A stretch of DNA of 32,000 nt, taken from NCBI GenBank assembly GCA_028700115.1, contig JAQVTI010000003.1, positions 38,551-70,550 of the forward strand. The letters are read 5' to 3'. Below, in pieces: positions 9,795 through 32,000 of the stretch (position 1 is its first letter; every line of letters starts with the position of its first letter). The position numbers were made by a program, and so were the translations under genes. The stretch is from Candidatus Iainarchaeum sp. (lineage in GTDB: Archaea; Iainarchaeota; Iainarchaeia; Iainarchaeales; CSSED10-239). The notes beneath the pieces are model-generated. The model was given only the letters and a program-made list of their open reading frames with translations. It was not told the origin of the DNA and made no database searches.

Positions 9795-10775
9795 ATGTCA
9801 ATTCAAGATACTTTTCCTTGGACTGAAAAATATAGACCCAAGATTTTAGATAATGTTATAGGTCAAAAACATATTCTTCCAAGATTAAAAAGTTATGTTT
9901 CTAAAAAAACACTTCCAAATATGCTTTTTGCAGGTCCTCCTGGTGTTGGAAAAACTTGTTGTGCTATTGCTATTGCTAGAGAAATTTTTGGAAATACTTT
10001 TAATCAAGATTTTTTAGAATTAAATGCTTCTGATGAAAGAGGAATTAATGTTGTTAGAGGCGCTATTAAAGATTTTTCTAGAACATTACCATTAGGTGCA
10101 AATTTTAAAATTATTTTTTTAGATGAAGCTGATGCATTAACTACAGATGCTCAGCAAGCTTTAAGAAGGACTATGGAAAAATATACTGGAACTGTTAGAT
10201 TTATTTTAAATGCAAATTATTCTTCAAAACTGATTTCACCAATTCAAAGTAGATGTTCTTTATTTAAATTTAGGCCTCTTTTAAAAGAAGATATTTTAGA
10301 AGGTTTAAATAAAATTATAATTTCAGAAAATTTAGATATGTCTTCAGAAGCAAAGGATGCTTTGTTTGATGTTTGCGAAGGAGATATGAGAACTGCTACT
10401 AATTATCTTCAAGCTGCAAGTTCTGTTGACAAAAAAATTTCAGTTGAAACAATTTATGAAGTTTCAAATTCTGCTCAACCAAAAGATGTAATTACAATGA
10501 TTGAAAAATGTCTTAATGGTAATTTTTTAGAAGCTCGTAAATTTTTAGAAAATATGATTTTTGAGCAAGGTCTTTCTGGTGAAGATATAATTAATCAAAT
10601 TTATAAAAAATTAATTAGTATGTCTGAAGATAAAATTGATATTTCTACTAAAATACAAATTATTGATAAAATTGCAGAAATTAATTTTAGATTAGTTGAA
10701 GGGGCCAATGATCGTATACAATTAGAAGCATTACTTGCACAAATTATATTTATTGCTTCAAAAAAAGGTGATTAA
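9795..10775 (+). CDS. rfcS: Replication factor C small subunit
   Basis: 326 aa. PWTEKYRPKILDNVIGQKHI, Walker A GPPGVGKT, Walker B IIFLDEADALT, SRC motif (IQSRCSLFKF). GTGAT SD-like motif at 9784-9788. Confidence 0.93.
   Translation: MSIQDTFPWTEKYRPKILDNVIGQKHILPRLKSYVSKKTLPNMLFAGPPGVGKTCCAIAIAREIFGNTFNQDFLELNASDERGINVVRGAIKDFSRTLPLGANFKIIFLDEADALTTDAQQALRRTMEKYTGTVRFILNANYSSKLISPIQSRCSLFKFRPLLKEDILEGLNKIIISENLDMSSEAKDALFDVCEGDMRTATNYLQAASSVDKKISVETIYEVSNSAQPKDVITMIEKCLNGNFLEARKFLENMIFEQGLSGEDIINQIYKKLISMSEDKIDISTKIQIIDKIAEINFRLVEGANDRIQLEALLAQIIFIASKKGD
10767..10772 (+). promoter_or_regulatory. Shine-Dalgarno-like GGTGAT, 5 nt upstream of TTG start of the pilus ATPase
   Basis: GGTGAT lies within the last codons of rfcS. 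The same GGTGAT-N5-TTG arrangement recurs at 28570-28583. It is complementary to the canonical 16S 3' tail (AUCACC). Confidence 0.55.
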
Positions 10776-10777
10776 TT

Positions 10778-12718
10778 TTGGTAAATAAATCTTATTTAGA
10801 TAATTTGATAAATAAATATAAATCTTCAAAAGATTCTTTAAAGGAAAATAATCTTGAAAATAGTTCTTCTATACATATTAATGATAATTTAAATAATTCA
10901 GATTCAAATGAAAATTTAAAAGATTCAAAAGAAGTTTCTGAAAAATCTTTAAATCTTTATGGTAAAGAAAATTTAGATTCTTCAAATAGTAGTTATAGTA
11001 ATCAGTTAGGTTCTTCTAATAATATTAAAGAAAAATATACTTCTATTGATAATCTAATTAAAGAGCATTCTGAAGATTTATTTAAAAATAAAACTGATTT
11101 AGATAAATTAGATTCATCAAATATTTTTTTAAAAGATGATAATATAATTACTTCAAAAGAAAATTTAAAAGAAAATTCAAAAGAAAATTTAGATATTAAT
11201 TCAAAAAAATATCCCCAAAATTCAAATGATTTTTCAGAAAAAAAAACCGATTTTGAAAATGAATTAGAAAAAGAAACAAAGTCTCATTTAATTACAAAAT
11301 ATGGGGAAACTGAAATTTATAGATTAGATGGCCAAACAATGCTTCATTATAAAATTCCTGTTCCAAAAGCAAATCCTTCTCAAAAGATGATAATAAATAC
11401 TTTAAAGGAAGCAACTACAAGAATTATTTCTACAGATCCTTATAAAATTAGAGATCCTTTACAAAGAAGAAATATTTATTATCAAAAAGTTATAGATATT
11501 TTAGAAAATGCCTCTGAGATTAATATTCCGAAGCATTTATTTTCTTTTTATGCAGATTCTGTTGTAAAAGAAATGACAGGTTATGGTGTTTTAGAGTCAT
11601 TATTAAATGATGATAAGTTAGAAGAAATTATGGTTGTTGGTCCAAATAAGCCTGTTTATGTTTATCATGTAGATTATGGGATGATGACTACAAACATTAC
11701 TTTTTATTCAGATAATAGTATTTTAGAAATTATTGATAAAATTTCTAGAACTATTGGAAGACAAGTAGATATTTCTACACCTTTATTAGATGCAAGATTA
11801 CCAGATGGTTCTAGAGTTAATGCAACTATTCCACCTGCATCTCTTGATGGTTCTACTATTACAATTAGAAAATTTAGAGAAGACCCTTACACTATTACAG
11901 ATCTTGTAAAAATGAAAACTGTTAATTTGGAAGTTGCTGGTTTTTTATGGTGTGTAGTAGATGGATTTGGAGCAAAACCTTCTAATATTTTAATTTCTGG
12001 AGGTACTGGTTCAGGAAAAACAACTACTTTAAATGTTTTAGCAAATTTTATTCCAGAGTCTGATAGAGTATTAACTATTGAAGATACTGCAGAATTACAA
12101 CTTCCTATTAAGCATGTTGTAAGATTTGAAGGAAGACCCCCAGGTCTAGAAGGAAAAGGTGAATTAAGTTTAGAAATTCTTACAAAAAATACTTTAAGAA
12201 TGAGACCTGATAGAATAATTGTTGGTGAAATAAGACATAAAGAAGCAAGTACTTTATTTACTGCTATGAATACAGGTCATGATGGTTGTATGGGTACAAT
12301 TCATGCTAATTCTGCAAAAGAAACTTTAGTTAGAATTACTTCTCCTCCAATGAATGTTCCTCCATTAATGCTTGCTGGTATTGATTTTATAATTATTCAA
12401 AAAAGATTAAGAACAGTAAAAGGACAAGTAAGAAGAATAACTTCAATTGCTGAGGTTACAGGTGTTTTAGAAAATAAACCTGCTGTAAATATTATTTTTA
12501 AATGGAATCCTGAAAGTGATGTTTTAGAAAGAACTGAAAATCCTATTTATTATTTTGAAATTATAAAAACTTATACTAATTTGTCAGATTCTCAAATTAA
12601 ACAAAAAATTGAAAAAAGAATAAACATTTTAAAAGGTTTAGTTAATAATAACATTAGAGATTTAAAAAATGTTTCAAATATTATACAAGAAGAATATATT
12701 AGAGCTTTTTCTTCTTAA
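10778..12718 (+). CDS. Type IV pilus assembly ATPase (T2SSE / FlaI-PilB-TadA superfamily, EpdL-like) with long low-complexity N-terminal extension
   Basis: 646 aa. Walker A GGTGSGKTTT, Walker B-like RPDRIIVGEIR, His-box-like TGHDGCMGTIHAN. A FlaI-like N-domain starts near LITKYGETEIYRLDGQTMLHYKIPVP. The first ~170 aa are N/S/K/D/E-rich. There is no in-frame ATG before codon ~188, so a TTG start at 10778 with an SD is likely. Confidence 0.9.
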   Translation: MVNKSYLDNLINKYKSSKDSLKENNLENSSSIHINDNLNNSDSNENLKDSKEVSEKSLNLYGKENLDSSNSSYSNQLGSSNNIKEKYTSIDNLIKEHSEDLFKNKTDLDKLDSSNIFLKDDNIITSKENLKENSKENLDINSKKYPQNSNDFSEKKTDFENELEKETKSHLITKYGETEIYRLDGQTMLHYKIPVPKANPSQKMIINTLKEATTRIISTDPYKIRDPLQRRNIYYQKVIDILENASEINIPKHLFSFYADSVVKEMTGYGVLESLLNDDKLEEIMVVGPNKPVYVYHVDYGMMTTNITFYSDNSILEIIDKISRTIGRQVDISTPLLDARLPDGSRVNATIPPASLDGSTITIRKFREDPYTITDLVKMKTVNLEVAGFLWCVVDGFGAKPSNILISGGTGSGKTTTLNVLANFIPESDRVLTIEDTAELQLPIKHVVRFEGRPPGLEGKGELSLEILTKNTLRMRPDRIIVGEIRHKEASTLFTAMNTGHDGCMGTIHANSAKETLVRITSPPMNVPPLMLAGIDFIIIQKRLRTVKGQVRRITSIAEVTGVLENKPAVNIIFKWNPESDVLERTENPIYYFEIIKTYTNLSDSQIKQKIEKRINILKGLVNNNIRDLKNVSNIIQEEYIRAFSS

Positions 12719-12750
12719 ATAAATTTATTTATATTTGTATGTGAAAATAT

Positions 12751-13887
12751 ATGCCAGAAGAAAAATTAGATAATTTAAAAAAATCCACAAAAGATGTAAA
12801 TTTAGATATAGATATGGATGCTGTTCAAAGTATTGTATCTAAAATGAAAAATAAATCTGAATATAAAGTTAAAGGTGATGGTTTATCTGAAGGGCATTTA
12901 AAAGAATTAAGGGCTATTATTTCTGAAGGTAAAGTTTCTAGTTTAGATGTTGATGCAGAAAAAAAGCTTTCTGCAAATACAGATTCTGATTTGGAAAAAA
13001 GTATTGCAAAATATTATAAATTTTTTAAAGGATTAATTGATAAAATAGTTTTGATGATTGTAAGAAGTAAATCTGCACAAAAAGTTTCATATTATTTGAC
13101 TTCTGCAAATTCATCTAAAACTTTAGTTCAGCATTTAGTTATTTCTATTCTTTTTGCTTTATTTTTAGATATTTTTATGTCTATTATTGTTTTAATTATA
13201 TTACTTTTAATAAATCCAGTTATTGCAGCAATTATTTTACCAATTAGTTTAATTGTATTTTTATTTTTCTTTATATTTATTTTAGTTTATTTGTTACCTA
13301 AACAAAAAGCTAAAGTTAGAGGTAAATTGATAGATATAGATTTGCCTTTTGCCTTAAGACATATTGCAACAGAAGTTTCTGCAGGTCTAGGTTTGTATAA
13401 AGTTTTACAGTCTGTTGGTAAAAATGATTATGGTGTTTTATCAGAAGAAATTAACCGAACTATTTTAGAAATTGAAAATGGTACTGATACAAAAACTGCC
13501 CTAAGGCATACTGCTTTAAGAAGCCAATCTAAAAATTTTAATGTTGCATTATTTCATATTATAAGAACATTAAATACAGGTGGAAATCTTGCAAATACCA
13601 TTAATGGTGTTGCAGATACAGTTTCTTTTGATTTAATGGAAGATGCAAAAGTTTTTGGTGAAAAAATGAATTTCTTTGGAGTAATTTTTATATTTATTGC
13701 AATTGTTCTTCCTGTTTTTGTTGCTATTTTAGGTGGTATTGCAAATGCTCCTTTAGGTCAAGATGGGGCTTTATTTTTACCAGGAGTTATGACTCCTTCA
13801 ACTATGTCTGCAATTTTTGGAATTATTCTTCCTGTAATTTTTATATTTTTATTATATTATATTAAAATAATTTCTCCAAAGGTGTAA
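12751..13887 (+). CDS. Pilus platform membrane protein, single T2SSF domain (TadB/EpdJ-like)
   Basis: 378 aa. A cytoplasmic N-terminus is followed by TM helices, then a T2SSF-like segment LPFALRHIATEVSAGLGLYKVLQSVGKNDYGVLSEEINRTILEIENGTDTKTAL...LNTGGNLANTINGVADTV, then C-terminal TMs. Confidence 0.8.
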   Translation: MPEEKLDNLKKSTKDVNLDIDMDAVQSIVSKMKNKSEYKVKGDGLSEGHLKELRAIISEGKVSSLDVDAEKKLSANTDSDLEKSIAKYYKFFKGLIDKIVLMIVRSKSAQKVSYYLTSANSSKTLVQHLVISILFALFLDIFMSIIVLIILLLINPVIAAIILPISLIVFLFFFIFILVYLLPKQKAKVRGKLIDIDLPFALRHIATEVSAGLGLYKVLQSVGKNDYGVLSEEINRTILEIENGTDTKTALRHTALRSQSKNFNVALFHIIRTLNTGGNLANTINGVADTVSFDLMEDAKVFGEKMNFFGVIFIFIAIVLPVFVAILGGIANAPLGQDGALFLPGVMTPSTMSAIFGIILPVIFIFLLYYIKIISPKV

Positions 13888-13889
13888 TT

Positions 13890-14801
13890 GTGATTATAAA
13901 ATTTTTTGAAAAATGGTTAGATAGATATCAAATTTATTTATATGCTTTAAAGATAAAAATACCTGTGAATTATTGGATTTTGGGGATGGTATTTTTATCT
14001 TTATTGTTAGGTATTTTGGGTTATTTTATAGATTTAAAAATTGGATTAATTCTTTTTGTTTTAATTTTAGATTTAGGTATTGGTATACCTATATATTTAT
14101 ATAATAAACATATTAAAAATATTGAAAAAGATTGGCCAAGTGCATTAAAGTTAATTGCAGATACTATGAAAGCAGGTTCTTCTTTTGAATATGCTTTAAG
14201 AGAAGTTTCTACTTCTGATTTTGGAGAACTTTCTTTTGAAGTTAATGAAATGATTAGAAGATTAGAAATGGGAGATTCTATGCAATCTGCATTAGAGCAT
14301 TTATCTATAAGAATAGAATCTAGAACAGTTAGAAGAACAGTTACTTTAATTAAAGAATCATTAAGAACTGGTGCTCAGCTTGCAGATGTTTTAGATGAAA
14401 TTGCAAATGATACTAAATATATGTTTAGAATTAAAAAGGAAAGAATTACAAAAACTATGCTTCAAACAATATTTATTATTGCAGCAGGGGCTGTAATTGC
14501 ACCTTTTATTTTTGGATTAACTAGAGTAATAACTGGTTTTTTAACAGAAGTGTCTACAAATGCAGGTATTGCTACAGAATCTGCTTTGGCTGTTGCTTTA
14601 AATTCTCAAGCAACAATTTATGTTCTTTTAGATATTTATATTGTTATTGAAATTATTGCTGCTTCTGCAATAATTAGTTTAATGAGAGAAAGTAATTTAA
14701 GTAATATTTATTTGTATTTTCCTATACTTTTAACAATTGGTTATATTGTATATATGATTTCTCAAAAAGTTTTGGGGTATATGCTTACAGGAATGATTTA
14801 G
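13890..14801 (+). CDS. Pilus platform membrane protein, single T2SSF domain (TadC/EpdK-like)
   Basis: 303 aa. GTG start 5 nt after GGTG (13881-13884), 2 nt after the previous stop. T2SSF-like segment WPSALKLIADTMKAGSSFEYALREVSTSDFGELSFEVNEMIRRLEMGDSMQSAL...LRTGAQLADVLDEIANDT, flanked by TM helices. Confidence 0.8.
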   Translation: MIIKFFEKWLDRYQIYLYALKIKIPVNYWILGMVFLSLLLGILGYFIDLKIGLILFVLILDLGIGIPIYLYNKHIKNIEKDWPSALKLIADTMKAGSSFEYALREVSTSDFGELSFEVNEMIRRLEMGDSMQSALEHLSIRIESRTVRRTVTLIKESLRTGAQLADVLDEIANDTKYMFRIKKERITKTMLQTIFIIAAGAVIAPFIFGLTRVITGFLTEVSTNAGIATESALAVALNSQATIYVLLDIYIVIEIIAASAIISLMRESNLSNIYLYFPILLTIGYIVYMISQKVLGYMLTGMI

Positions 14802-14874
14802 GTTTTTTTATTTATTTCTGTTTTGTTTTTAATTAAATAGTTTTAAAAAAATAATTATAAAAATAAGAGAATTT

Positions 14875-15060
14875 ATGGATTTAAAAAAATTAAATGTTTT
14901 AAAATTTTTAAAAGAAGAAAAAGCACAAGTTTCTGTAGAATTTTTAATAGTTTTAGGGCTTGTTATTTTAGTTGCATTATTAGTGGGTTTTTATGTAAAA
15001 CAACTTTCTGGAAAGAAAGCTGGAGAAGCAAATGATTTAAAAAATCAAACATTTGAATGA
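14875..15060 (+). CDS. Flp-sized class III signal peptide protein (small pilin candidate)
   Basis: 61 aa. Leader MDLKKLNVLKFLKEEKA|QVSVEFLIVLGLVILVALLVGFYV, matching the QxSxExxxL motif with Q+1 and E+5. It has only a ~20-aa polar tail. Confidence 0.8.
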   Translation: MDLKKLNVLKFLKEEKAQVSVEFLIVLGLVILVALLVGFYVKQLSGKKAGEANDLKNQTFE

Positions 15061-15218
15061 TTTAAGGGTATTATTTTAGTTTGTTAATCTAAAAAGAAAG
15101 ATATATAAAGATAATGATGTAATATTTTGTTAAAGTTTATTATAATTTATATAAACTTTAAATTAAAATATTCTTTATAAAAGAATTTTTTTAAAATATT
15201 TTAAAAAAAAGATAAAAA

Positions 15219-15222
15219 GGTG
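15219..15222 (+). promoter_or_regulatory. Shine-Dalgarno-like AAAGGTG upstream of pilin gene
   Basis: aaaaaGGTGttattaaaATG, with 8-nt spacing to ATG 15231. Confidence 0.5.
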
Positions 15223-15230
15223 TTATTAAA

Positions 15231-15722
15231 ATGATTAAAAATAAAAAAGGACAAGGTGCCTTAGAATACCTATTACTAATTGGTGGTGCTGTTCTAATTG
15301 CTGTAATTGTAATTGCATTATTAGTTGGAATGGGTGGACAAAGTAGAGATTCTGCAAAAGATCAAGCAGACAAAGCTTCAAAAGCTACAGATATTCCTCA
15401 ACCTGCATCTATAACAAGTATCACTCCTGTTGCTAATTCTTGTACTCCAAATTCAGATGGAAATATAATTTTGGATTGGGCTCCTTTAGCTACTGGTGGA
15501 ACATATAATTTGAGAGCTTACGATTATACTGGTGAAAAGGATTTAAATGTTACTATTGGTAGTAATACTGATGGTAAATTAGATGCTTCTGTTTTACATC
15601 AAGAGAATATTATGATTTCTGGTGACGATTTTGCAGCTTGTGAAAACACATATTGGATTGAAGTTGTAACTACAAAGAATAACCAATCAGTTGCTTCTGC
15701 AAAAACAAAATTCAATTGGTAG
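15231..15722 (+). CDS. Type IV pilin with globular C-terminal domain (major pilin candidate)
   Basis: 163 aa. Leader MIKNKKG|QGALEYLLLIGGAVLIAVIVIALLV, then a beta-rich domain (ITSITPVANSCTPNSDGNIILDWAPLATGGTYNLRAYD...) with two Cys. It has its own SD, a long upstream intergenic region and a downstream hairpin plus T-tract. Confidence 0.8.
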   Translation: MIKNKKGQGALEYLLLIGGAVLIAVIVIALLVGMGGQSRDSAKDQADKASKATDIPQPASITSITPVANSCTPNSDGNIILDWAPLATGGTYNLRAYDYTGEKDLNVTIGSNTDGKLDASVLHQENIMISGDDFAACENTYWIEVVTTKNNQSVASAKTKFNW

Positions 15723-15735
15723 ATTTAAAATATAG

Positions 15736-15757
15736 TTTGTGTTTTTAAAAACACAAA
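15736..15757 (+). terminator. Hairpin plus T-tract downstream of pilin gene
   Basis: Perfect 22-nt palindrome tttgtgtttttaaaaacacaaa (9-bp stem, 4-nt loop if folded), 14 nt after the stop, followed by ttttctttttcttttttt. Confidence 0.5.
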
Positions 15758-15775
15758 TTTTCTTTTTCTTTTTTT

Positions 15776-15860
15776 AATTATTTTTTTTAAATAATTATTT
15801 TTTTTTAAATAATTATTTTTTTTATTATTTTTTTTAAATAATTATTTTTTTTAAATAAGA
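15776..15860. repeat. Intergenic tandem repeat, about 5 copies of a 17-18 nt unit AAATAATTATTTTTTTT(T)
   Basis: Read directly. Full units lie at 15789-15806 (9 T), 15807-15823 (8 T) and 15836-15852 (8 T). Partial units lie at 15776-15788, 15824-15835 and 15853-15860. The array sits between the two larger pilin genes. Confidence 0.85.
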
Positions 15861-15931
15861 ACATATATAAATATTTTGATATAATATTAAAATATAATAT
15901 TTGATTTAATTTTTAAAATAAAATAAAATTT

Positions 15932-16408
15932 ATGATTCTTATGGTTTTAAAAAATAAAAAAGGACAAAGCTCTTTAGAATATATGTTAATTATTGGTGGT
16001 GCTTTATTAGTTGCAATTATTGTTATAACCGTTGTTTTATCTTTAGGTAATGCAAATAAAGATTCTGCAGAAAGTACAAATCAAGATTATCAATATTTAA
16101 TAGACAGTACTATAATTCCTCCAATAATTACTAATGTAGATTGTAATATTGATTCTAATATTACTATTTATTTAAATACTTCTACAAGTAAAAATATTTC
16201 AGGATATAAGATTATTGTAGATGATTTTTTACCTTATCCAAGTGGTTTAGATGTAATTTATGAAACCTCTGGGGTAGTTTCTCAAAATGCTAATAGTTTA
16301 GGTATAAATACTGTTGGGCAAATATATAATATTTCTATAGTTGCAATTAAAAATAATTCTTCTTCAAGACCTTCAATGCCTTCAATGAGCTGTAAAGCAC
16401 ATAATTAA
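15932..16408 (+). CDS. Type IV pilin with globular C-terminal domain (second pilin)
   Basis: 158 aa from ATG 15932. ATG 15941 would give leader MVLKNKKG|QSSLEYMLIIGGALLVAIIVITVVL, a length closer to the other pilins. The C-terminal domain has two Cys and several N-x-S/T sequons (NIT, NTS, NIS, NNS). Confidence 0.8.
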   Translation: MILMVLKNKKGQSSLEYMLIIGGALLVAIIVITVVLSLGNANKDSAESTNQDYQYLIDSTIIPPIITNVDCNIDSNITIYLNTSTSKNISGYKIIVDDFLPYPSGLDVIYETSGVVSQNANSLGINTVGQIYNISIVAIKNNSSSRPSMPSMSCKAHN

Positions 16409-16432
16409 ATATATAGAAATTAAAGATAATTT

Positions 16433-16621
16433 ATGAAAAATATAAATAAATTTTTAAAAGAAGAAAAAGCACAAGTCTCTGTAGAATATTTAATTATGAT
16501 TGTTTTTGGTTTAATGCTTGTAATTACTACAGGAATAATTATAATCAATTTAAATAGTTTTGTAACTATGGCTAAAGCTAAAATTTTAACATATAGAGAT
16601 AATATTTTAGCAAGTTTATAG
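16433..16621 (+). CDS. Flp-sized class III signal peptide protein (small pilin candidate, paralog of 14875-15060)
   Basis: 62 aa. Leader MKNINKFLKEEKA|QVSVEYLIMIVFGLMLVITTGIIII. A 46-nt stretch (16449-16494) is 44/46 identical to 14903-14948. Confidence 0.8.
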   Translation: MKNINKFLKEEKAQVSVEYLIMIVFGLMLVITTGIIIINLNSFVTMAKAKILTYRDNILASL

Positions 16622-16669
16622 TTTAATTTTTAGAAAATGTATATTATGTTTTTTTAAAGTAGGTAATAA

Positions 16670-17794
16670 ATGTTTAATTTTTCTTTATTTTATTTTTTTA
16701 TTGTTTTATTTTTTTTAATTATTTCTTCATATACTGATTTTAAAAAAAGAATTGTATTAAATAAAGTTGTTTTATTTTTTTTAATTTTAGGTATTTTATT
16801 TAAAATTTTAGAAAGTGTTTTATTTAGTTCTTTTAATATTTTGTTATTTTCTATTTTATCTTTTATTATTTGTTTTATAATTTTTTATATTTTATGGAGT
16901 ATAGGTGTTTTTTCAGCAGGGGATGTAAAGGTTTTTTTAGTTATTTCTATATTTATTCCTAATAATTTAGTTTTTTTGAATATTTTAGATAAAATATATG
17001 TTCTTTCAAAACCAATATTTTCTTTAAATCTTTTATTTTTTTCAATTTTTTCAATTTTACCTTTTATTTTATTTTTTGCAGTTATAAAATTATTTAATAT
17101 AGATAATTTAATATTAATTAAAAATAAAATTTTTAAAAAATATTTTTTAGAAAGTATATTAAATTCTGTAATTATTTTATTTTTAGTTTCTTCTTTTTTA
17201 AGTATATTTAGTTCTTTTTTAAATTCTTTTTATATTTTTATTTTTTCATTATTTTTTATATTTTTTTTTAATAAATTAAAATCTATAATTAATAAAGGTA
17301 CTTATATTTTTTATGTTTTATTTTTTACATTTTTGTTTATTTATAATTTTTATATCCCAATTAATGTTTTTAATTTTAATAATTTTTTTTCAATAATTTT
17401 GAGTGTAAGTATTATTTTTGTTCTTTTAGTTTTATACACTATTATTAGAAATAAAATATTTACATATACAAAAAGTGTAGATAAACTTAAAGAAGGTGAT
17501 TTACTTTATTATAATTATTATTTTATAAATAATATGGTTTATACTAAAAAATATAATTTTATTAAATATATTTTTGATATATTGAAAAATAATTATTATA
17601 TTAACCTAAAAATTGATTCAAGACATTCTGCAGGAATTTTAAAATCAGACATTATATTTTTAAATGATTCCTATAACCATAATTTAATAGAAAAAGAAAT
17701 TAAATTAAAAAAAACAGTTCCTTTTATTCCAAGTGTTTTAATTGCATATATTATATTAAATATAATTGGAGATGTTTTTTGGTTTATTATATAA
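16670..17794 (+). CDS. Archaeal prepilin/preflagellin peptidase (A24 family aspartyl protease, EppA/PibD/FlaK-like) with extended C-terminal half
   Basis: 374 aa. The first catalytic Asp context is SSYTDFKKRIVLNK and the second is in the GxGD-type motif VFSAGDVKVF. The terminal TVPFIPSVLIAYIIL resembles the conserved last helix. About 200 aa of extra TM helices plus a polar segment lie between the core and the last helix. Confidence 0.85.
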   Translation: MFNFSLFYFFIVLFFLIISSYTDFKKRIVLNKVVLFFLILGILFKILESVLFSSFNILLFSILSFIICFIIFYILWSIGVFSAGDVKVFLVISIFIPNNLVFLNILDKIYVLSKPIFSLNLLFFSIFSILPFILFFAVIKLFNIDNLILIKNKIFKKYFLESILNSVIILFLVSSFLSIFSSFLNSFYIFIFSLFFIFFFNKLKSIINKGTYIFYVLFFTFLFIYNFYIPINVFNFNNFFSIILSVSIIFVLLVLYTIIRNKIFTYTKSVDKLKEGDLLYYNYYFINNMVYTKKYNFIKYIFDILKNNYYINLKIDSRHSAGILKSDIIFLNDSYNHNLIEKEIKLKKTVPFIPSVLIAYIILNIIGDVFWFII

Positions 17795-17808
17795 ATTTGT
17801 GATTATAT

Positions 17809-18276
17809 ATGATTAAAAATAAAAAAGCTCAGATTTCAATTGAATATATTGTTTTTATTGCAATTTTTTTAATGTTTTTTCAAGCTGTATTATATCCTTC
17901 TGCAGTTTTTGCAGAAAATATAATTAATGATGTTTCTAGTATTTCTCAATCTAGTCAAAGTATTAATTCTTTATCAAATTCTATTGAAAGTTTAGCCAAT
18001 AGTTCTGGTTATGGTAAAAGAACTATTTTTTTCTATCTTCCAGAGAATACTCATATGTCTATTGAAAGTAATAAAATTATCTATTCTATAGATATTTCTA
18101 ACCAAAAACCATTCCCTAATAATTGTTCTACAGGAATTTGTACTTTTGAAAAAATATTATATATTGGTTCTTTATCTATTTCTGAAGAAGATTCAGATAA
18201 CTTTATAGGCGGTTATTCTGGGAAACTTATTATTGAAAAAAAAGATAATGGTGTAATTAGTGTTAAAGCGGATTAA
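17809..18276 (+). CDS. Pilin-like protein with class III signal peptide (minor pilin candidate)
   Basis: 155 aa. Leader MIKNKKA|QISIEYIVFIAIFLMFF. GTGAT at 17799-17803, 5 nt upstream of the ATG. Confidence 0.7.
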   Translation: MIKNKKAQISIEYIVFIAIFLMFFQAVLYPSAVFAENIINDVSSISQSSQSINSLSNSIESLANSSGYGKRTIFFYLPENTHMSIESNKIIYSIDISNQKPFPNNCSTGICTFEKILYIGSLSISEEDSDNFIGGYSGKLIIEKKDNGVISVKAD

Positions 18277-18616
18277 AGCTCAAGCAAGTATCGAATATAT
18301 TGTAATTATTACTTTTATTTTAGCTATATCTATCTTTTTTGTATTAATTATTTTTAAAACAAATGATATTAATTATTCTATTCATCAAACAAAACAAGAA
18401 ACTTTAAGATTAATCTCAGAGTCAGATTCTTCTATTATTTTAGAAAAAATTAATTATGAAATTTCTGATAATACCATTTTACATTTAAATTTAAATTTTT
18501 TAAAAATACATCCTACAGATATTTTTTTTATTGATCAAAATTATTCTTTTGTTAAACAAAATATTTTAAATAAAACTAAATTTACAGACGTGGTTTTTAG
18601 TTTTAAATATATTTAA
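18260..18616 (+). CDS. Pilin-like protein with class III signal peptide (minor pilin candidate)
   Basis: 118 aa. GTG start 6 nt after GGTG (18250-18253), overlapping the previous gene by 17 nt. Leader (V)LKRIKA|QASIEYIVIITFILAISIFF. Confidence 0.65.
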   Translation: MLKRIKAQASIEYIVIITFILAISIFFVLIIFKTNDINYSIHQTKQETLRLISESDSSIILEKINYEISDNTILHLNLNFLKIHPTDIFFIDQNYSFVKQNILNKTKFTDVVFSFKYI

Positions 18617-18656
18617 ACAATGAATTTTTTTTAAATTATTAATTTAGGTAGAATAT

Positions 18657-19151
18657 ATGAATACAAAACATATTTGGCAATTAGAAATAATTTTTTTATG
18701 TGGTCTTTTTGTAAATCTTTTTGTAGAAAAAATGCTTTATTTAAAAATTTTATTTATTTTTTTAATTTTACTTTTTGTTTTTAAAGAGAAAGATACTTTT
18801 GTATTTATTAAACTTAAATATTTATATTTTGGTTATGGTTTAGTTGGTATCCTTATTTTAGCTTTATTGATCGGATTTATATCTAATATTTATTTTATAA
18901 CCATTAGTATTTGTTTAGTAGTTTTATATTTTTATTTATATAAAATAATTTTTAATAAAACCATTGGAGTTGTTTTAAAAATATCTTCTAAAAAAATTTA
19001 TTTTAAAGTGATAGATCCATTTTATAAGTCTAAAAAAGAATTTATTCTTTCTTCTAATTTAAAAATTTCTAAAAATGATAAAATTTCAATCTTACAAAGT
19101 TCTTTTTTAATTAAAAAACCTCTAAAAATTTTAAAAGTTTTAAAAGAATAA
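18657..19151 (+). CDS. Membrane protein with C-terminal beta-rich domain (weak NfeD-like impression)
   Basis: 164 aa. Three to four N-terminal TM helices, then IGVVLKISSKKIYFKVIDPF...ISKNDKISILQSS...LKILKV. The family assignment is only a pattern impression. Confidence 0.45.
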   Translation: MNTKHIWQLEIIFLCGLFVNLFVEKMLYLKILFIFLILLFVFKEKDTFVFIKLKYLYFGYGLVGILILALLIGFISNIYFITISICLVVLYFYLYKIIFNKTIGVVLKISSKKIYFKVIDPFYKSKKEFILSSNLKISKNDKISILQSSFLIKKPLKILKVLKE

Positions 19152-19154
19152 TAT

Positions 19155-19520
19155 ATGTTTAAAAAAAGTTTTGTAATTTTTTTTATTTTAATAATTATTT
19201 TTTGTTTTATATTTCTTTCTTTTTTAACTTTTTTTTATAAACCACCTTCATTAAATTTATTTGATTTTAATTTTGATTTTCATTTAAACAAATCAATTTC
19301 TTTAAATGGGCTTGTTAAAAATGTTGTAATTAAGGATAATATCTTATTTTTTGAAATATGTCAATATTCTAGATGTCTTGATTGTGTGATTTTTAATTTT
19401 ACTTCTTTTCAAAAAGATTTGGTTTATAAAAAATCTTTAGATAAATCTTTTTTAGAAGTTATTGGGCTTTTAACAGAATATAATAATAAACCAGAAATAA
19501 TTGTTTATAGATTAATATGA
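19155..19520 (+). CDS. Membrane-anchored protein with putative OB-fold domain
   Basis: 121 aa. N-terminal TM FVIFFILIIIFCFIFLSFLTFF, then ISLNGLVKNVVIKDNILFFEICQYSRCLDCVIFNF...SFLEVIGLLTEYNNKPEIIVYRLI. This follows the alternating pattern typical of OB-fold (tRNA_anti-like) domains. It starts 3 nt after the previous stop. Confidence 0.45.
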   Translation: MFKKSFVIFFILIIIFCFIFLSFLTFFYKPPSLNLFDFNFDFHLNKSISLNGLVKNVVIKDNILFFEICQYSRCLDCVIFNFTSFQKDLVYKKSLDKSFLEVIGLLTEYNNKPEIIVYRLI

Positions 19521-20701
19521 TTTATTTTTTACAAATAATTGTAGGGGTTCTTTTAGGAACTTTTATTGGTTTTTTTCCAAATATACATATTAATCTTTTA
19601 GCATATGTTTTTTCTATAATTAATTTAATTTATTCTCCAGATTCTTTTTATTTTTTTTTATCTTTCTCTATTTCTCAATTAATTTCAAGTTATCTCCCCA
19701 CCACTTTTTTTGGAATCCCAAATGAATCTACTGTTTTATCTTTATTTCCTTCTCAAAGATTAAATTTAAAAGGGGAGTCTAAACTTGCAATTTATTTATG
19801 TCTTTTTGGATCTTTTTTAGGTTGTTTATTTTCTATATTAATTCTTCCTTTTTTAGGAATTATTTTTTCTTTATTAAAAGATTTTAATTTTATTATTTAT
19901 TTTTCAATAATTCTTTCTTTATTTTTATTTATTTTATCTCAATCTAAAATTAAAGATATGCTTATTGTTTTTTCTATTATAATTTTTTCTGGTTCTTTAG
20001 GGATATTTACTTTAAAATACAATTTATTTTTTAGGGAACCTCTTTTTGTATGTATTACTTGTCTTTTTGCTTTTCCTTATTTAATTTCATCAATTTTTAA
20101 TAAACATAGAGGTGTTTTTCAAAGTTTTTCAAAAGTAAATTTAGATTATAATAAATATATTTTACCTGGATTAATTGGTTCTATATCTTCTTTTTTAATT
20201 ATTTTAATACCTTCTTTTTCTTCATCTCAAGCAGCTGCAATTATTTCTTCTATTAAAAAAAAAATTAATGAAAAAGTATATTTAATTATTTTTTCATCAA
20301 TTTCTATTAGTGCTTTAATATTTTCTTATTTTCTTGCAATTAATTTTAATAAACCCAGATTAGGATATATTGCCATTTTATTATCTGCAAATGTGCTTCC
20401 TGTTTCTTTTAATTATTTTATTTTTTCTATAGTTATTTTAATTTCTTCTCTTTTAAGTAGTTTTATAATTTTTAGTTTAATTAATTTTATTTTAAAAATT
20501 ATAAATCATTTAAATTTATATAGAATTAATATTTTCTTTTTTATTTTTATTTTGTTTATACTTATTTTTGTTTCTGGTTTTAATAGTATTTTTTTAATTA
20601 TTATAAGTACTTTAATTGGTTTTATTCCTTTGAGATTTAATAAATCTAGACTTTTTTTAATCAGTTATTTAATGATCCCTACTTTACTTTTTTATATTTA
20701 A
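19517..20701 (+). CDS. Polytopic membrane protein, possibly DUF112/TctA-like
   Basis: 394 aa with more than 10 hydrophobic helices and an ATGA overlap with the previous gene. The N-terminal GVLLGTFIGFFPNIHINLLA...FFGIPNESTVLSLFPSQRLNLKGESKLAIYLCLFGSFLG resembles the TctA-family signature by eye. Confidence 0.45.
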   Translation: MIYFLQIIVGVLLGTFIGFFPNIHINLLAYVFSIINLIYSPDSFYFFLSFSISQLISSYLPTTFFGIPNESTVLSLFPSQRLNLKGESKLAIYLCLFGSFLGCLFSILILPFLGIIFSLLKDFNFIIYFSIILSLFLFILSQSKIKDMLIVFSIIIFSGSLGIFTLKYNLFFREPLFVCITCLFAFPYLISSIFNKHRGVFQSFSKVNLDYNKYILPGLIGSISSFLIILIPSFSSSQAAAIISSIKKKINEKVYLIIFSSISISALIFSYFLAINFNKPRLGYIAILLSANVLPVSFNYFIFSIVILISSLLSSFIIFSLINFILKIINHLNLYRINIFFFIFILFILIFVSGFNSIFLIIISTLIGFIPLRFNKSRLFLISYLMIPTLLFYI

Positions 20702-20746
20702 TTTTAAATACTTCTATTTATAATATATTTTATAAAATATATTTGT

Positions 20747-21136
20747 ATGACAAAAAATTTATCTTGGAAAATATATGACGATGTTATAGAAAGTATAATG
20801 GCTTTATCAAAATCTTTTTACCCAAATGAGTTTTCTGGAATGCTTTATGCAGAAAATAATGTTATTCAAGATATATATATTATTCCAAAAACTATTAGTA
20901 ATAGAAATAATGCTATTATTAGACTAGATTTAGTTCCAATGAGTTTAAATATAATTGGTTCTGTTCATTCACATCCTTCTGGTTTTGGAAAACCATCTAT
21001 TGCAGATCTTAATTTTTTTTCACGAAAATATGTTAATATTATTTCATATTTTCCTTTTTCTAAAAATTGTTTTAAAGTTTATGATAATTTAGGTCATATT
21101 ATTGATAATTTTGAGATTATTTTTAGACAAAAATAA
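20747..21136 (+). CDS. JAMM/MPN+ family metalloprotease (stand-alone)
   Basis: 129 aa. Complete JAMM motif: upstream Glu (YPNEFSGMLY) and GSVHSHPSGFGKPSIADLNFF, which matches HxH-x7-S-xx-D. Confidence 0.85.
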   Translation: MTKNLSWKIYDDVIESIMALSKSFYPNEFSGMLYAENNVIQDIYIIPKTISNRNNAIIRLDLVPMSLNIIGSVHSHPSGFGKPSIADLNFFSRKYVNIISYFPFSKNCFKVYDNLGHIIDNFEIIFRQK

Positions 21137-21260: not shown

Positions 21261-23924
<2,664 letters not shown>

Positions 23925-28580: not shown

Positions 28581-30779
28581 TTGAAAAAGAAAATTAAACT
28601 TAAAGGTCAAGTCTCAATTGAGGTTTTAGCTATTTTAGGAGTTTTAATAATTGGTGCTGTTTTATTAGGTGTTTTTTATTTAAACACAATTTATGATAAA
28701 ATGGACGAAGGAACTGATATTGGTTCTTTAACAGATGGTTTTGATTTTGGTTTTGATGACGAACCAGGAACTCCTGGTGGACCAGTTGTTCCAACTTGTG
28801 ATAATGACGGTGTAAGAGAAACTGGTGAAGAGTGTGATGGATCTGATTTTGGTAGTGTGACTTGTTCTTCTTTTGCAGGATATATTGGAGATGAAGCAAA
28901 CTTAATTTGTAATGATTGTGAAATTGATTTTTCTTCTTGTGAAGTTGACCCAGAAGACCCACCAGTTTGTGGGGATAATCTAATTAACCAAGCTTCTGAA
29001 GTTTGTGATGATTCTGATTTTGATGGAAAAACATGTGAGGATTATACACCTTCAGGTTATTATTTTGTTTCAGGAAGTCTAGAATGTAGAGATAATTGTA
29101 CAACAATAGATACTTCAAATTGTAAATTTGAAGAAATTGTTACAGAAAACTGTGGAAACGGTATTTTAGATTCTGGTGAAGAATGTGATTATAATGGTCA
29201 AGTTTTTAGTTTTGAACCAGTAAATTGTCAAGCTTATGGTTTATTAGAACCAATTAGTTTTGTTGGATCATCTACAGCTGTAACTTGTACTACTGAATGT
29301 AGAGTTGATACTAGTAGTTGTCTAGATCCAGAAGTTCCAGGAACATGTGATCAATTTAATTTAGAACAATGTATTTTAGAACCAGAAGTTTGTAAAGAAT
29401 GTAGTAATGAAATCACAGGAACTATTTTTAATACAAGTGATGTAAATTGTGCAATTGCTGGTTGTTGTGGAGATAGAGATTGTACTATTTCAAAAACACT
29501 TTCTACATTTCCATATGTAGGAAATTATTTGTATGAAATCCCACAAGGTTCATTATCTATTTTAAATGGATATGGAGAAAGTATAACTTTTGGAAGTAAT
29601 ACATTTAAAATAAATCCAGAAGTTATGCATGAATGTGAAGATGATTGTGATACTCTTTGTAGTTTTAATCACTCTAGTGGAGTTACAACTGAAATTTTAG
29701 CAGGTGAACTTGTTGAAGTTTGTCAAGAATGTTATTATAATAATAGTTCTGTTGATTGTTGTGGAAATGGGATTTGTAGTTCTAGTGAGACTTCTTTAAG
29801 TTGTCCAATAGACTGTAATACATTTAATCCTCAATTTACAATAAATTCAACACCTTCTAGTTTAGAAAGTTATGTAAGTGGTGGATTTAATGTTGATGTT
29901 TCTGCATTTAACTTTGATGATACTGCAATGTATTTTGGTTTGAAGTTGCATGTTTATGATACATCTACAAATGAACTTTCAAACAACTGTTCATATGATG
30001 GAACTTATAGTAGTGTTTTAGATTTAGGTAGTTATAGTAAGAATGATCCAAATCATTCATTTACATTTGTTTGTAACACTATTGGGGATTATGAATTTAA
30101 GTTTGTAGGTTCAGAATATATTTTAGATCCAAACACTGGTGGAACTCAAACAAACATGCCAATTGCATTTGCTGAAGACCATTCTGATGTAAGTATAATT
30201 TCTGCCGGTTCTCCTCAAATATTAAATTTATATTCTTCTGTTAATTCTGTGACTACTCAATCAGATGTTGAATTTGATATAACTTTACAAAGTAGAAATG
30301 AAGCTTCTCAAGTAACTTTAAATGTTGTTGATAATTATAATTTTGTTTTAAATGATTGTACATATAATAGCATTCCAATTACAGAAGATTATTTACTTTC
30401 AAACTTCAATCAAGATGAAACAAAGACATTTACTTTCAAATGTTCTGATGAAATTATGCATAAATTTAATTTTTATGGAGTAACTATAGAAGAACCAATC
30501 CAAGATTCAAGTGAATCTGTACAAGTAAATGTAGTTAATGAAGAAATACAAGAAGGTATTAATCCTTATGCTTTATGTAGTCCAGTTGTTTCAAGTGTAT
30601 CTGGAGATCAAACTCTAAGAATTTGTGTAAATGATCTTTTTGCAACATCTACATCTGGAGGTAATACTCTTACAATATATGTAAATAATCCTACATATTC
30701 AGAAAGAGAAGATACTACTCCAAATTGTACTACTTTAAATGGAAATACACTTTGTATATATCCAGGAAAATTAAATTAA
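28581..30779 (+). CDS. Large modular cysteine-rich surface protein with pilin-type class III signal peptide (modular pilin / adhesin candidate)
   Basis: 732 aa. Leader (L)KKKIKLKG|QVSIEVLAILGVLIIGAVLLGVF. Three six-Cys repeats follow (aa 73-120, 130-181, 191-247), e.g. CGNGILDSGEECDYNG. Further Cys-rich segments include CCGNGICSSSETSLSCPIDC. Two ~90-aa repeats each carry a Cys pair 28 residues apart. I counted 44 Cys in total. Confidence 0.8.
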   Translation: MKKKIKLKGQVSIEVLAILGVLIIGAVLLGVFYLNTIYDKMDEGTDIGSLTDGFDFGFDDEPGTPGGPVVPTCDNDGVRETGEECDGSDFGSVTCSSFAGYIGDEANLICNDCEIDFSSCEVDPEDPPVCGDNLINQASEVCDDSDFDGKTCEDYTPSGYYFVSGSLECRDNCTTIDTSNCKFEEIVTENCGNGILDSGEECDYNGQVFSFEPVNCQAYGLLEPISFVGSSTAVTCTTECRVDTSSCLDPEVPGTCDQFNLEQCILEPEVCKECSNEITGTIFNTSDVNCAIAGCCGDRDCTISKTLSTFPYVGNYLYEIPQGSLSILNGYGESITFGSNTFKINPEVMHECEDDCDTLCSFNHSSGVTTEILAGELVEVCQECYYNNSSVDCCGNGICSSSETSLSCPIDCNTFNPQFTINSTPSSLESYVSGGFNVDVSAFNFDDTAMYFGLKLHVYDTSTNELSNNCSYDGTYSSVLDLGSYSKNDPNHSFTFVCNTIGDYEFKFVGSEYILDPNTGGTQTNMPIAFAEDHSDVSIISAGSPQILNLYSSVNSVTTQSDVEFDITLQSRNEASQVTLNVVDNYNFVLNDCTYNSIPITEDYLLSNFNQDETKTFTFKCSDEIMHKFNFYGVTIEEPIQDSSESVQVNVVNEEIQEGINPYALCSPVVSSVSGDQTLRICVNDLFATSTSGGNTLTIYVNNPTYSEREDTTPNCTTLNGNTLCIYPGKLN

Positions 30780-30857: not shown

Positions 30858-32000
30858 ATGAATAAGAATATAATATATATTATATTTATCATTTGTTTTT
30901 TATTTTCATTTAGCTATGTTTATGCTTATTCTTCAACAAATGTTTTAAACTACGTTTCTCAAACTAAATCTTCTCAAAATATAAATCCAAATATAACAAT
31001 TAGTTCAAATAATAATATTTCAAATATTTCTCAAATTAATCCAAATTTTGATTTAAATCAAAATGATTGTGGTGGTATTTCTTTTGGAGATGTTTATTAT
31101 CCTCCTGGTATTTGTAGTAAAGCAGATGTAAAAGAATATATAAAAAACATAACTTCAATCTCACCAAAAGACAATTTTACTTCTGTAGAAAATATCTGGG
31201 GAACTTGTCCTACAGAAGGAGATTTTACAATTCCAGTTTTTATGGTTGAGTTTTCAGATCAACCACATAAAGCAGACATTACTTTTGAAGATATAAATGC
31301 TGCTTATAATGATCCAAATTATCTTGATGAAAATGGAATTAGTGTTTCTGATTATTACTTACACCAATCTTATGGTGCATTAAATCTTTCATTTGATGTT
31401 TATGAAGATTGGTATGAACTTCCAGAAACTTTTGAATATTATAAAACAAATAATTCAACACAATTTCAAATGTTTATGGATTTTTTAGATCTTGTTGACT
31501 CAGAAGTAGACTTTAGTCAATATGATGCAGATGGTGATGGAAGAATGGAAGGTCTTATATTAATAAGATCTGGAGAAGTTAGTTCTCAATTTAAAAATCA
31601 TACTAGAATTATGAATGGTTCTAGTTATAATAGAGATGATACTTTTTTAGGAAATATGTATGTTGTTGCTTCTGAATTTGATGAAGGTATTTGTAATATG
31701 TATCAACAAGAATTTGGTTTTCCTGAAGATTGTAGAATGGATGTTCAAGTTTTAATTCATGAATTTGGTCATATTTTAGGAGTTCCTGATTTATATGAGG
31801 CTCATAATAGTCATGCATTAGGTCCTGGATTAGATGAATTAACAGTTATGGCTGCTGATCAAACAAATCCAAATTTCCCTCCTAATTTTGATGTTTGGTC
31901 AAAGACTTTTTTTGGTTGGATTAATCCAACCATTATCGGTTCACAAGATGCTGGTTTTTATAATCTGCCAACTTTAGATGATACTCCTATTGCTTATGTT
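30858..32000 (+). CDS. Secreted M6-like (immune inhibitor A-type) zinc metalloprotease, 3'-truncated at window edge
   Basis: Not in the ORF track because there is no stop in the window; I translated 381 codons without a stop. Sec-type leader MNKNIIYIIFIICFLFSFSYVYA. Further markers: FTIPVFMVEFSDQP, DADGDGRMEGLILI, and the zinc site VLIHEFGHILGVPDLYE. Confidence 0.75.
   Translation, partial: MNKNIIYIIFIICFLFSFSYVYAYSSTNVLNYVSQTKSSQNINPNITISSNNNISNISQINPNFDLNQNDCGGISFGDVYYPPGICSKADVKEYIKNITSISPKDNFTSVENIWGTCPTEGDFTIPVFMVEFSDQPHKADITFEDINAAYNDPNYLDENGISVSDYYLHQSYGALNLSFDVYEDWYELPETFEYYKTNNSTQFQMFMDFLDLVDSEVDFSQYDADGDGRMEGLILIRSGEVSSQFKNHTRIMNGSSYNRDDTFLGNMYVVASEFDEGICNMYQQEFGFPEDCRMDVQVLIHEFGHILGVPDLYEAHNSHALGPGLDELTVMAADQTNPNFPPNFDVWSKTFFGWINPTIIGSQDAGFYNLPTLDDTPIAYV

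Follow-up and report, generated by a model that had tools for sequence, protein, structure and literature searches.

A cluster of 14 genes, all on the plus strand, occupies positions 10778-21136 of the 32-kb stretch of DNA from Candidatus Iainarchaeum sp. that was analyzed here (the window). Profile matches and gene layout place the cluster in clade 1, or System 1 (Epd-type), of the archaeal type IV pili, of which it is an ordinary member. Behind the pilus genes, the cluster carries a DUF2101-like protein, an OB-fold protein, a TctA-like membrane protein and a JAMM protein. We know of no candidates for DNA passage during transformation in archaea, which lack ComEC, other than the OB-fold/TctA-like pair from a Methanococcus screen. 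Judging from homology and gene order, the chances appear even that the Epd-type pilus operon is here physically fused to an OB-fold/TctA module tied to natural transformation. Pilus, DUF2101 basal protein, OB-fold DNA receptor and TctA-like importer may further constitute a self-contained archaeal competence machine, kept as one inherited unit in Iainarchaeota and Micrarchaeota; this wider proposal is held with somewhat less than even confidence. The pilus type itself is already known and has earlier been reported in DPANN archaea. In the searchable literature no precedent was met for an Epd-type pilus fused in a conserved operon with the OB/TctA module and DUF2101; this fusion is the new feature.

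The OB-Fold/TctA Pair and Natural Transformation

The link between the pair and transformation comes from Methanococcus maripaludis, in which a transposon screen for transformation-defective mutants recovered epdJ/K/L, eppA and several epd pilin genes (Fonseca et al. 2023; PMC10133366). In this species the gene of a single-transmembrane (single-TM) OB-fold protein, MMJJ_13020, adjoins that of an 11-TM TctA-like protein, MMJJ_13030. Clean deletion of either gene abolished transformation and both deletions were complemented; deletion of the TctA homolog in Methanoculleus thermophilus led to the same loss, and MMJJ_13030 was proposed by the authors as the missing archaeal DNA transporter (PMC10133366). 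The pair of the window belongs to the same two Pfam families in the same order, OB then TctA, with a single N-terminal TM helix on the OB-fold protein, a short TctA and neither TctB nor TctC. In M. maripaludis the pair lies ~225 kb from epdJKL (13020/13030 versus 10560-10580), whereas here it stands inside the pilus operon.

The initial annotation knew of no described Epd/Tad system that includes genes such as those at 18657-21136, and it left three membrane proteins without an assigned role. Both statements had to be revised. The three proteins are recognizable as a DUF2101-like protein, a TM-anchored OB-fold protein and a member of the TctA family; the latter two are of the same families as the Methanococcus transformation genes, and DUF2101 recurs beside clade-1 clusters. 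TctA, DUF2101 and JAB are not mentioned for archaeal pilus loci in the examined text and supplements of Makarova et al. 2016, nor in the 2026 preprint by Sivabalasarma and Albers. A full-text search combining type IV pili, archaea and TctA gave the work of Fonseca et al. as the one relevant return, and literature searches on Forterrea with pili and on Diapherotrites with pili and DNA uptake yielded nothing useful.

The OB gene starts 3 nucleotides (nt) after the DUF2101 gene and runs 4 nt into the start of the TctA gene. Four of seven orthologs of the OB-fold protein match PF01336 (best 3.4e-8), and its predicted topology is N-in/C-out with a weak positive-inside bias. An NCBI protein from a 'Candidatus ainarchaeum sp.' metagenome-assembled genome (MAG) has the same sequence as the TctA-like protein (100% identity). 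The archaeal TctA-like family of ~395 amino acids (aa) comprises 1239 representatives (50% identity) at E<=1e-30, with Woesearchaeota and Undinarchaeota as named sources among the best 150 matches listed. Profile searches with 9 and then 26 sequences brought in DPANN and then bacterial TctA, and the archaeal profile matches the ~500-aa bacterial TctA at ~1e-50, which means clear homology. The AlphaFold (AF2) model of the TctA-like protein (predicted local distance difference test, pLDDT, 87.7) is all-helical, with long TM helices and short hairpin-like helices in both halves. A solved homolog was not found, the best E value of the model against the PDB in Foldseek being 0.11. Profile searches matched neither the TctB nor the TctC family in the window.

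Stand-alone TctA genes were observed as well. In L081, L083, L085, L086 and L087 (TctA at 10001), from other DPANN lineages, they lie a few kb from genes of a DNA polymerase (PolD DP2 or PolB) and of Cdc6/Orc1, and an adjoining OB gene was confirmed in L085 only. The arrangement was seen in at least four distinct contexts. Conservation of an origin-proximal neighbourhood could account for it, as could a function connected with DNA.

Conservation of the Gene Order

Eighty loci around relatives of the pilus ATPase were annotated by tblastn and iterated hidden Markov models (HMMs). By this means the synteny comparison in DPANN relatives that had been suggested with the initial annotation was carried out, and the cluster order was found to recur in Iainarchaeota and Micrarchaeota. 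Iainarchaeota supplied the nearest ATPase loci, among them one from the complete genome of Ca. Forterrea multitransposorum, and Micrarchaeota the next nearest. TctA lies at most 8 kb downstream on the same strand in 10/10 close relatives. The region from cdc48 to DnaK (20 kb) is collinear throughout these relatives and therefore synteny alone explains part of the conservation.

In the divergent DPANN loci, the ATPase is 52-64% and TctA 19-30% identical to that of the window, and the flanks are wholly different in L032, L035, L036-L039 and L045 and partly shared in others. Among the Micrarchaeota loci and those with unrelated flanks, ATPase identity is only 52-59%. Divergent loci nevertheless repeat the succession of ATPase, two platform genes, pilins, A24, two pilin-like genes, DUF2101, OB and TctA, and the part from A24 to TctA is kept with 3-nt gaps or 4-8-nt overlaps. 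The linkage was counted in the 22 divergent DPANN loci with a peptidase module and enough sequence. TctA stands directly after the peptidase/minor-pilin module in ~15-16 of them, including the Micrarchaeota loci L037, L039 and L045 and a compact variant, A24 followed by a small TM protein and TctA, in L036-L038. A divergent 7-8-TM protein takes the place of TctA in three of the 22 (hhalign 84% to TctA), and nothing TctA-like was found at that place in another three. Since the fusion is present in two DPANN phyla and in none of the nine non-DPANN loci with 10 kb downstream, it is lineage-restricted, yet it has been kept over phylum-level divergence. That the OB/TctA pair is built into the pilus operon in two DPANN phyla provides independent comparative-genomic support for a joint function of pilus and pair.

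DUF2101-Like and JAMM Proteins

The protein encoded ahead of the OB gene has no direct Pfam match and its AF2 single-sequence model is poor (pLDDT 59). An hhalign comparison (96.3%, E 1.9e-9) ties its family to the proteins that occupy this place in distant loci, and these in turn match PF09874 DUF2101 with a best value of 1.2e-17. Judged by these alignments, it is probably a divergent DUF2101 membrane protein and a pilus-linked accessory. In Hadarchaeota, DUF2101 (PF09874, up to 3.4e-30) adjoins the clade-1 pilus cluster on the opposite strand, as in L053:16589-17323(-) and L069:10805-11563(-) and also in L057, L060, L065, L066 and L074. These clusters are without TctA, and therefore DUF2101 tracks the pilus and not the transporter. 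It may be an unrecognised conserved component of clade-1 pili; none of the papers found in the literature search mentions it. A role of DUF2101 as the TctB analogue of a 'tripartite' OB/DUF2101/TctA transporter was considered and dismissed: it follows the Hadarchaeota clusters just described, it is absent beside the stand-alone TctA genes, and no similarity to TctB was detected at E<=1.

The last gene of the cluster encodes the JAMM protein, as had been annotated and as the Prok-JAB match bears out. It follows TctA in Iainarchaeota-type loci only and not in Micrarchaeota, and in Archaeoglobus the JAB gene lies between aconitase and TrkA genes, not beside TctA. As it is missing from the Micrarchaeota versions and displaced in L080, the JAMM protein was discarded as a core component; it is a loose associate of the cluster.

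Pilus Class and Core Genes

Clade 1 as described by Makarova et al. 2016 occurs in Methanococci, Methanobacteria and Thermococci and has two TadC-like genes, major pilins of ~70 aa, minor pilins and a 9-TM EppA peptidase. Some clade-2 loci also have two platform genes (Makarova 2016) and so this feature is not exclusive to clade 1. System 1 was extended to DPANN in the preprint by Sivabalasarma and Albers, and one Micrarchaeota pilus locus was assigned to the clade-1 group in the Mia14 paper. The window cluster consists of one T2SSE ATPase, two single-T2SSF platform proteins, six pilin-like proteins, one EppA-type A24 peptidase and four accessory genes (Table 1). Clade-1 traits are seen in the intact motifs of the ATPase, the two single-T2SSF genes beside it, the long peptidase, and the Q at +1 of six leaders, two of them in 61/62-aa proteins, along with minor pilins. 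ATPase relatives of ~50% identity in Thermococci, Methanobacteriota and Hadarchaeota show the same layout of one ATPase and two platform genes. In the Thermococcus relative L059, neither an FtsZ-like nor a squalene cyclase gene, the clade-1 markers of Makarova et al., was found within 10 kb, with only DUF515 upstream.

Table 1. Genes of the pilus cluster and the pilin-like gene downstream of it, with positions in the window.
Feature	Position	Strand	Evidence
Pilus assembly ATPase, T2SSE family, Epd/Tad-like	10778..12718	+	Pfam T2SSE 1.5e-49
Platform protein 1, single T2SSF, EpdJ/K- or TadB/C-like	12751..13887	+	Pfam T2SSF 9.5e-17
Platform protein 2, single T2SSF	13890..14801	+	Pfam T2SSF 4.7e-15
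Short pilin, 61 aa, KA/QVSVEF, without globular domain, Flp/EpdE-like	14875..15060	+	Class_IIIsignal 4.8e-5, motif scan
Pilin with globular domain, 163 aa, KG/QGALEY	15231..15722	+	Class_IIIsignal 4.7e-8 (above gathering score), motif scan
Pilin with globular domain, 158 aa, KG/QSSLEY	15932..16408	+	Class_IIIsignal 6.3e-8 (above gathering score), motif scan
Short pilin, 62 aa, KA/QVSVEY	16433..16621	+	Class_IIIsignal 0.014, motif scan
EppA-type long prepilin peptidase, A24 and archaeal C-terminal domain, multi-TM, 374 aa	16670..17794	+	Peptidase_A24 1.1e-11, Arc_PepC 1.8e-6
Minor pilin-like, 155 aa, KA/QISIEY	17809..18276	+	Class_IIIsignal 4.2e-4
Minor pilin-like, 118 aa, KA/QASIEY, 17-nt overlap with preceding gene	18260..18616	+	Class_IIIsignal 0.034, motif scan
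DUF2101-like membrane protein, ~3 TM helices and beta-rich C-terminal region	18657..19151	+	hhalign link to same-position proteins
OB-fold protein, single N-terminal TM anchor	19155..19520	+	PF01336 1.6e-4 (below gathering score)
Short TctA-like membrane transporter, 394 aa	19517..20701	+	PF01970 5.5e-27, 94.9 bits vs cut-off 28.9
AfJAMM-type JAB/MPN+ metalloprotease, intact E...HxHx7SxxD	20747..21136	+	Prok-JAB 1.6e-6; AF2198/AfJAMM 1.9e-18, motif aligned
Cys-rich class III signal peptide protein, 732 aa, MKKKIKLKG/QVSIEVL	28581..30779	+	Motif scan, weak class-III and Cys-rich-repeat matches

The initial annotation had read the cluster as an Epd/Tad-like pilus on account of two platform genes, one ATPase, Q+1 pilins and an EppA-type peptidase, and the profile searches agree with it. 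Pfam supports the T2SSE, T2SSF, Class_IIIsignal, Peptidase_A24 and JAMM assignments, including T2SSF at 12751-14801 and A24 at 16670-17794. The motifs quoted earlier, GGTGSGKTTT (Walker A), YTDFKKR and SAGDVK (the two A24 Asp motifs), are all found in the translations.

The ATPase has an N/S/K-rich N-terminal extension of ~190 aa (10778-11350), followed by intact motifs: Walker A GGTGSGKTT, Asp box LTIEDTAEL, Walker B DRIIVGEIR and His box TGHDGCMGTIHAN. In the PDB, the best match to it is CpaF (9e-76), the ATPase of Tad pili, with A. fulgidus GspE2 (AfGspE2) and FlaI ranking lower. Membership in the bacterial Tad/Flp systems was rejected, as the ATPase scores 236 bits against a cut-off of 373 with the NCBIfam TadA family TIGR03819, the pilins reach 12-14 bits against 32 with Flp_Fap, and neither a secretin nor TadZ is present; the locus is Tad-like in its working but no member of Tad.

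That the locus encodes an archaellum for motility, with FlaF/G/H partners encoded in another place, is very improbable. Although the NCBIfam FlaI equivalog model gives the best NCBIfam E-value for the ATPase (2e-83), the score of 281 bits stays below the cut-off of 550, and CpaF, not FlaI, is the nearest solved relative. Platform protein 2 can be aligned weakly over its full length with the C-terminal half of ArlJ/FlaJ and with UpsF, but the platform is split over two genes in place of a single ArlJ. Profile searches matched FlaF/G/H, ArlCDE/X-type or archaellin families in no open reading frame (ORF) of the window, and the Q+1 Epd-type pilins are accompanied by an EppA-type, not a FlaK-type, peptidase. 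The archaellum was therefore rejected, in line with the initial annotation.

Platform protein 1 is encoded directly after the ATPase in 67/80 related loci. Both Asp motifs of the peptidase, TDFK and AGDVK, are in place. With the NCBIfam EppA model its alignment extends through the entire length (residues 9-365) at a score of 39 bits, far under the cut-off of 450, but FlaK is matched at the N-terminus only; this suggests that the protein resembles EppA in architecture and is not a close ortholog. The first minor pilin-like gene always comes next after the peptidase; the place of both minor pilin-like genes is conserved across the related loci. The 62-aa short pilin has 64-75% identity in close relatives.

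The six leaders of the form K[GA]/Q-x-[SA]-x-E that had been noticed in the sequence were recovered by a motif scan and by Class_IIIsignal matches. In the scan, [KR][GA]Q-x-[SAGT]-x-[ED] had to be followed by an uncharged hydrophobic stretch, and 100 codon shuffles served as control. Seven sites were obtained in the window, namely the six N-termini of the cluster and one at 28602, and none in the 100 shuffles. Class_IIIsignal was matched by 6/6 pilin-like proteins, with two above the gathering score, one short of it by 0.1 bit and three weaker.

Two variations of the core were observed in relatives. The ATPase gene is interrupted in L080, L046, L056, L063, L076 and L077; the insert in L080 (10001-12823) is an intein with a LAGLIDADG homing endonuclease and a helix-turn-helix domain (Intein_splicing 5.7e-18), and the ATPase of the window is without an intein. 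Many divergent relatives have a second block of three to four small genes with other pilin-like N-termini (KGQ-x-[FS]-x-D, RGF-x-FS-x-D), as in L018:20157-21372, L024:18944-21201, L026:18114-19681, L034:15105-16675, L035:16421-17519, L045:13016-14587 and L056:19171-21350. This block either follows the JAMM gene or separates the minor pilin genes from the OB gene, and it is absent from the window cluster.

Locus Layout and Neighbouring Genes

All 14 ORFs described initially as consecutive plus-strand genes with gaps of at most ~210 nt were found in place, with an intergenic spacing of -17 to +209 nt and the widest gap at 15722->15932. The window, with a GC content of ~15-30%, also agrees with the view of an AT-rich, reduced archaeal genome, the organism being a DPANN archaeon. 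Housekeeping genes in the window include Cdc48, topoisomerase, Lrp, MiaB-like, replication factor C (RFC) small subunit and GrpE/DnaK/DnaJ; no tRNA or Rfam elements were found in it. Close spacing and shared orientation are not peculiar to the cluster, as the plus-strand run extends to at least 30779. The stop of the RFC small-subunit gene lies 2 nt upstream of the TTG start of the pilus ATPase (10775-10778), and the GrpE gene begins 124 nt after the JAMM gene; therefore spacing cannot set the operon boundaries. RFC and the ATPase adjoin each other in all close relatives, and in some distant ones RFC is found several kb upstream; simple compaction is the probable cause of the adjacency. GrpE (21261-22037, +) has an N-terminal run of ~15 near-perfect KDET repeats, which is unusual for GrpE and typical of the low-complexity expansions in this AT-rich genome; the N-terminal extension of the ATPase is similar.

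The seventh leader belongs to a 732-aa protein encoded 7.4 kb downstream of the cluster. It is acidic, has repeated C-x-x-C/EECD-like motifs and is without a Pfam domain. It is probably a pilin-anchored adhesin that is processed by the EppA-type peptidase of the cluster. A related large pilin-like gene was found inside the pilus cluster in L056. Directly downstream of the 732-aa gene, a secreted zinc metalloprotease (30858-32000, +; HEFGHxLGxPDLY; Peptidase_M6, immune inhibitor A, 3.7e-6) runs off the end of the window. As for the earlier suggestion of a host-contact adhesive filament, the Cys-rich pilin-like protein at 28581 speaks for it, but the conserved gene linkage is at least as strong a sign of a role in capturing and taking up DNA.

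Alternative Explanations

Several points count against a role of the pair in DNA import. Its proposed equivalence to MMJJ_13020/13030 is drawn from the Pfam families, the size and TM architecture of the proteins, and the adjacency and order of the genes. The match of the OB-fold protein of the window to PF01336 is under the Pfam gathering score, and the OB ectodomains are not notably basic, having a net charge of ~-5 to +4 with only a weak inside/outside charge bias. The TctA-like protein keeps residues that are conserved in bacterial small-molecule TctA (G18, P21, H24, P232, R281), and its model would resemble a two-repeat secondary transporter, with no obvious DNA pore. No nuclease, ComEA/ComEC-like or DprA-like gene was found in the window. 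TctA is absent from 9/9 non-DPANN ATPase loci with 10 kb downstream (seven Hadarchaeota, one Thermococcus-like and one Hodarchaeaceae-labelled MAG) and lies away from pili in four other DPANN contexts (Aenigmarchaeota and other lineages). The piliation of the OB and TctA mutants was not reported in the transformation paper (PMC10133366), and therefore the pair could act in pilus biogenesis, which is a serious rival.

According to this rival, to which we give a limited chance, DUF2101, OB and the TctA-like protein are accessories of pilus biogenesis or anchoring, for example by import or flipping of a small molecule for pilin maturation or as a part of the basal body, and the transformation defect in Methanococcus would be secondary to pilus loss. 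It draws on the place of the genes within the pilus operon, where they come next after the peptidase and minor pilin genes, on the tie of DUF2101 to clade-1 clusters even without TctA in Hadarchaeota, and on a modelled TctA fold that seems close to small-molecule secondary transporters. However, the OB/TctA pair is far from pilus genes in Methanococcus and in several DPANN lineages, and in several DPANN contigs TctA adjoins DNA polymerase and Cdc6, not surface-structure genes. The OB domain moreover belongs to a nucleic-acid-binding Pfam family, and TctA and DUF2101 are not among the pilus-associated families in the text and supplements of Makarova et al. that were examined. It is rather unlikely, in our estimation, that the locus makes an adhesive or host-contact Epd pilus only and that DUF2101, OB, TctA-like and JAMM are unrelated neighbours kept by compaction and inherited synteny, such as a small-molecule transporter and a housekeeping deubiquitinase-like enzyme. 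The collinear 20-kb region of the close relatives, the equally tight spacing to the unrelated RFC and GrpE genes, the large Cys-rich adhesin candidate nearby and the JAMM gene unlinked to TctA in Archaeoglobus and Micrarchaeota would all fit, as would the transport of tricarboxylates by bacterial TctA members, with which the conserved residues are common. Against this stand the A24/pilin/DUF2101/OB/TctA order, which persists across two DPANN phyla with differing flanks, the absence of TctB and TctC, and the transformation phenotype of OB/TctA alongside Epd pili in two methanogens.

Proposed Mechanism and Implications

For DNA capture and import, the proposed working is as follows. The seven prepilins with K[GA]/Q leaders are predicted substrates of the EppA-type A24 peptidase. 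By homology, the single ATPase and the two platform proteins would polymerise the pilins into a thin Epd/Tad-like filament, with DUF2101 as a putative conserved membrane accessory of the pilus. In Tad systems, CpaF is reported to drive both extension and retraction as a single ATPase, and any retraction here would likewise proceed via the same ATPase. As the knock-outs in M. maripaludis and M. thermophilus and the gene fusion suggest, the pilus would bring extracellular DNA to the membrane, the outward-facing OB-fold protein would bind it at the outer membrane face, and the TctA-like protein would carry DNA or its breakdown products into the cell. The JAMM protease is given no step in this scheme. 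In a reduced DPANN archaeon, such a machine could serve nucleotide scavenging and/or recombination.

If this is true, the long-sought archaeal DNA translocase would be a repurposed tripartite-transporter subunit, and reduced DPANN archaea would feed on, or recombine with, environmental or host DNA. The scheme predicts that Iainarchaeota and Micrarchaeota are naturally competent or DNA-scavenging, which bears on nucleotide supply and gene exchange in ultra-small archaea with minimal biosynthesis. As a compact unit of 13-14 genes, the cluster could be expressed or modelled whole. The analysis also flags DUF2101 as an unstudied pilus-linked membrane protein.

Comparison with Known Systems

The Epd pilus of M. 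maripaludis (EpdJ/EpdK, EpdL, EppA and Epd pilins) likewise has one ATPase, two platform genes, a long EppA-type peptidase, Q+1 class III leaders, short pilins without a globular domain and several minor pilins. The core genes of the window, however, form one compact operon, whereas in M. maripaludis the peptidase/pilin genes and epdJKL are at separate loci. Compared with Epd-type systems, the window cluster is without a DUF2341 adhesin and a FleN/MinD gene, its ATPase carries the low-complexity N-terminal extension, and the operon runs on into DUF2101, OB, TctA and JAMM. The bacterial Tad/Flp systems (TadA/CpaF, TadB, TadC, Flp, TadV) share two platform proteins, pilins of ~60 aa and a single ATPase, with CpaF as the solved structure most similar to the ATPase of the window. 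Unlike them, the archaeal locus lacks secretin, TadZ and RcpA-type genes, its peptidase has an archaeal C-terminal domain, and the scores of its proteins with the Flp_Fap and TadE Pfam families are far under threshold.

In the bacterial TctABC transporters, the large membrane subunit is homologous to the TctA-like protein and the conserved residues are common to both. The protein of the window is ~100 residues shorter, has neither TctB nor the TctC binding protein, and has an OB-fold protein as its partner instead. AfJAMM of Archaeoglobus fulgidus (AF2198; PDB 1OI0, 1R5X) is likewise a stand-alone JAB/MPN+ domain of ~125 aa with an intact metal-binding motif, but its gene is not near TctA or pilus genes, whereas that of the window stands in the pilus locus. 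The proposed scheme follows the same logic as bacterial competence with a type IV/Com pilus, ComEA and ComEC, in which a filament captures DNA, a membrane-anchored DNA-binding receptor holds it and a polytopic importer takes it in. The likeness is one of analogy only, without homology: an OB-fold would stand in place of the helix-hairpin-helix receptor and a TctA-like protein in place of ComEC, with no DprA or ComF.

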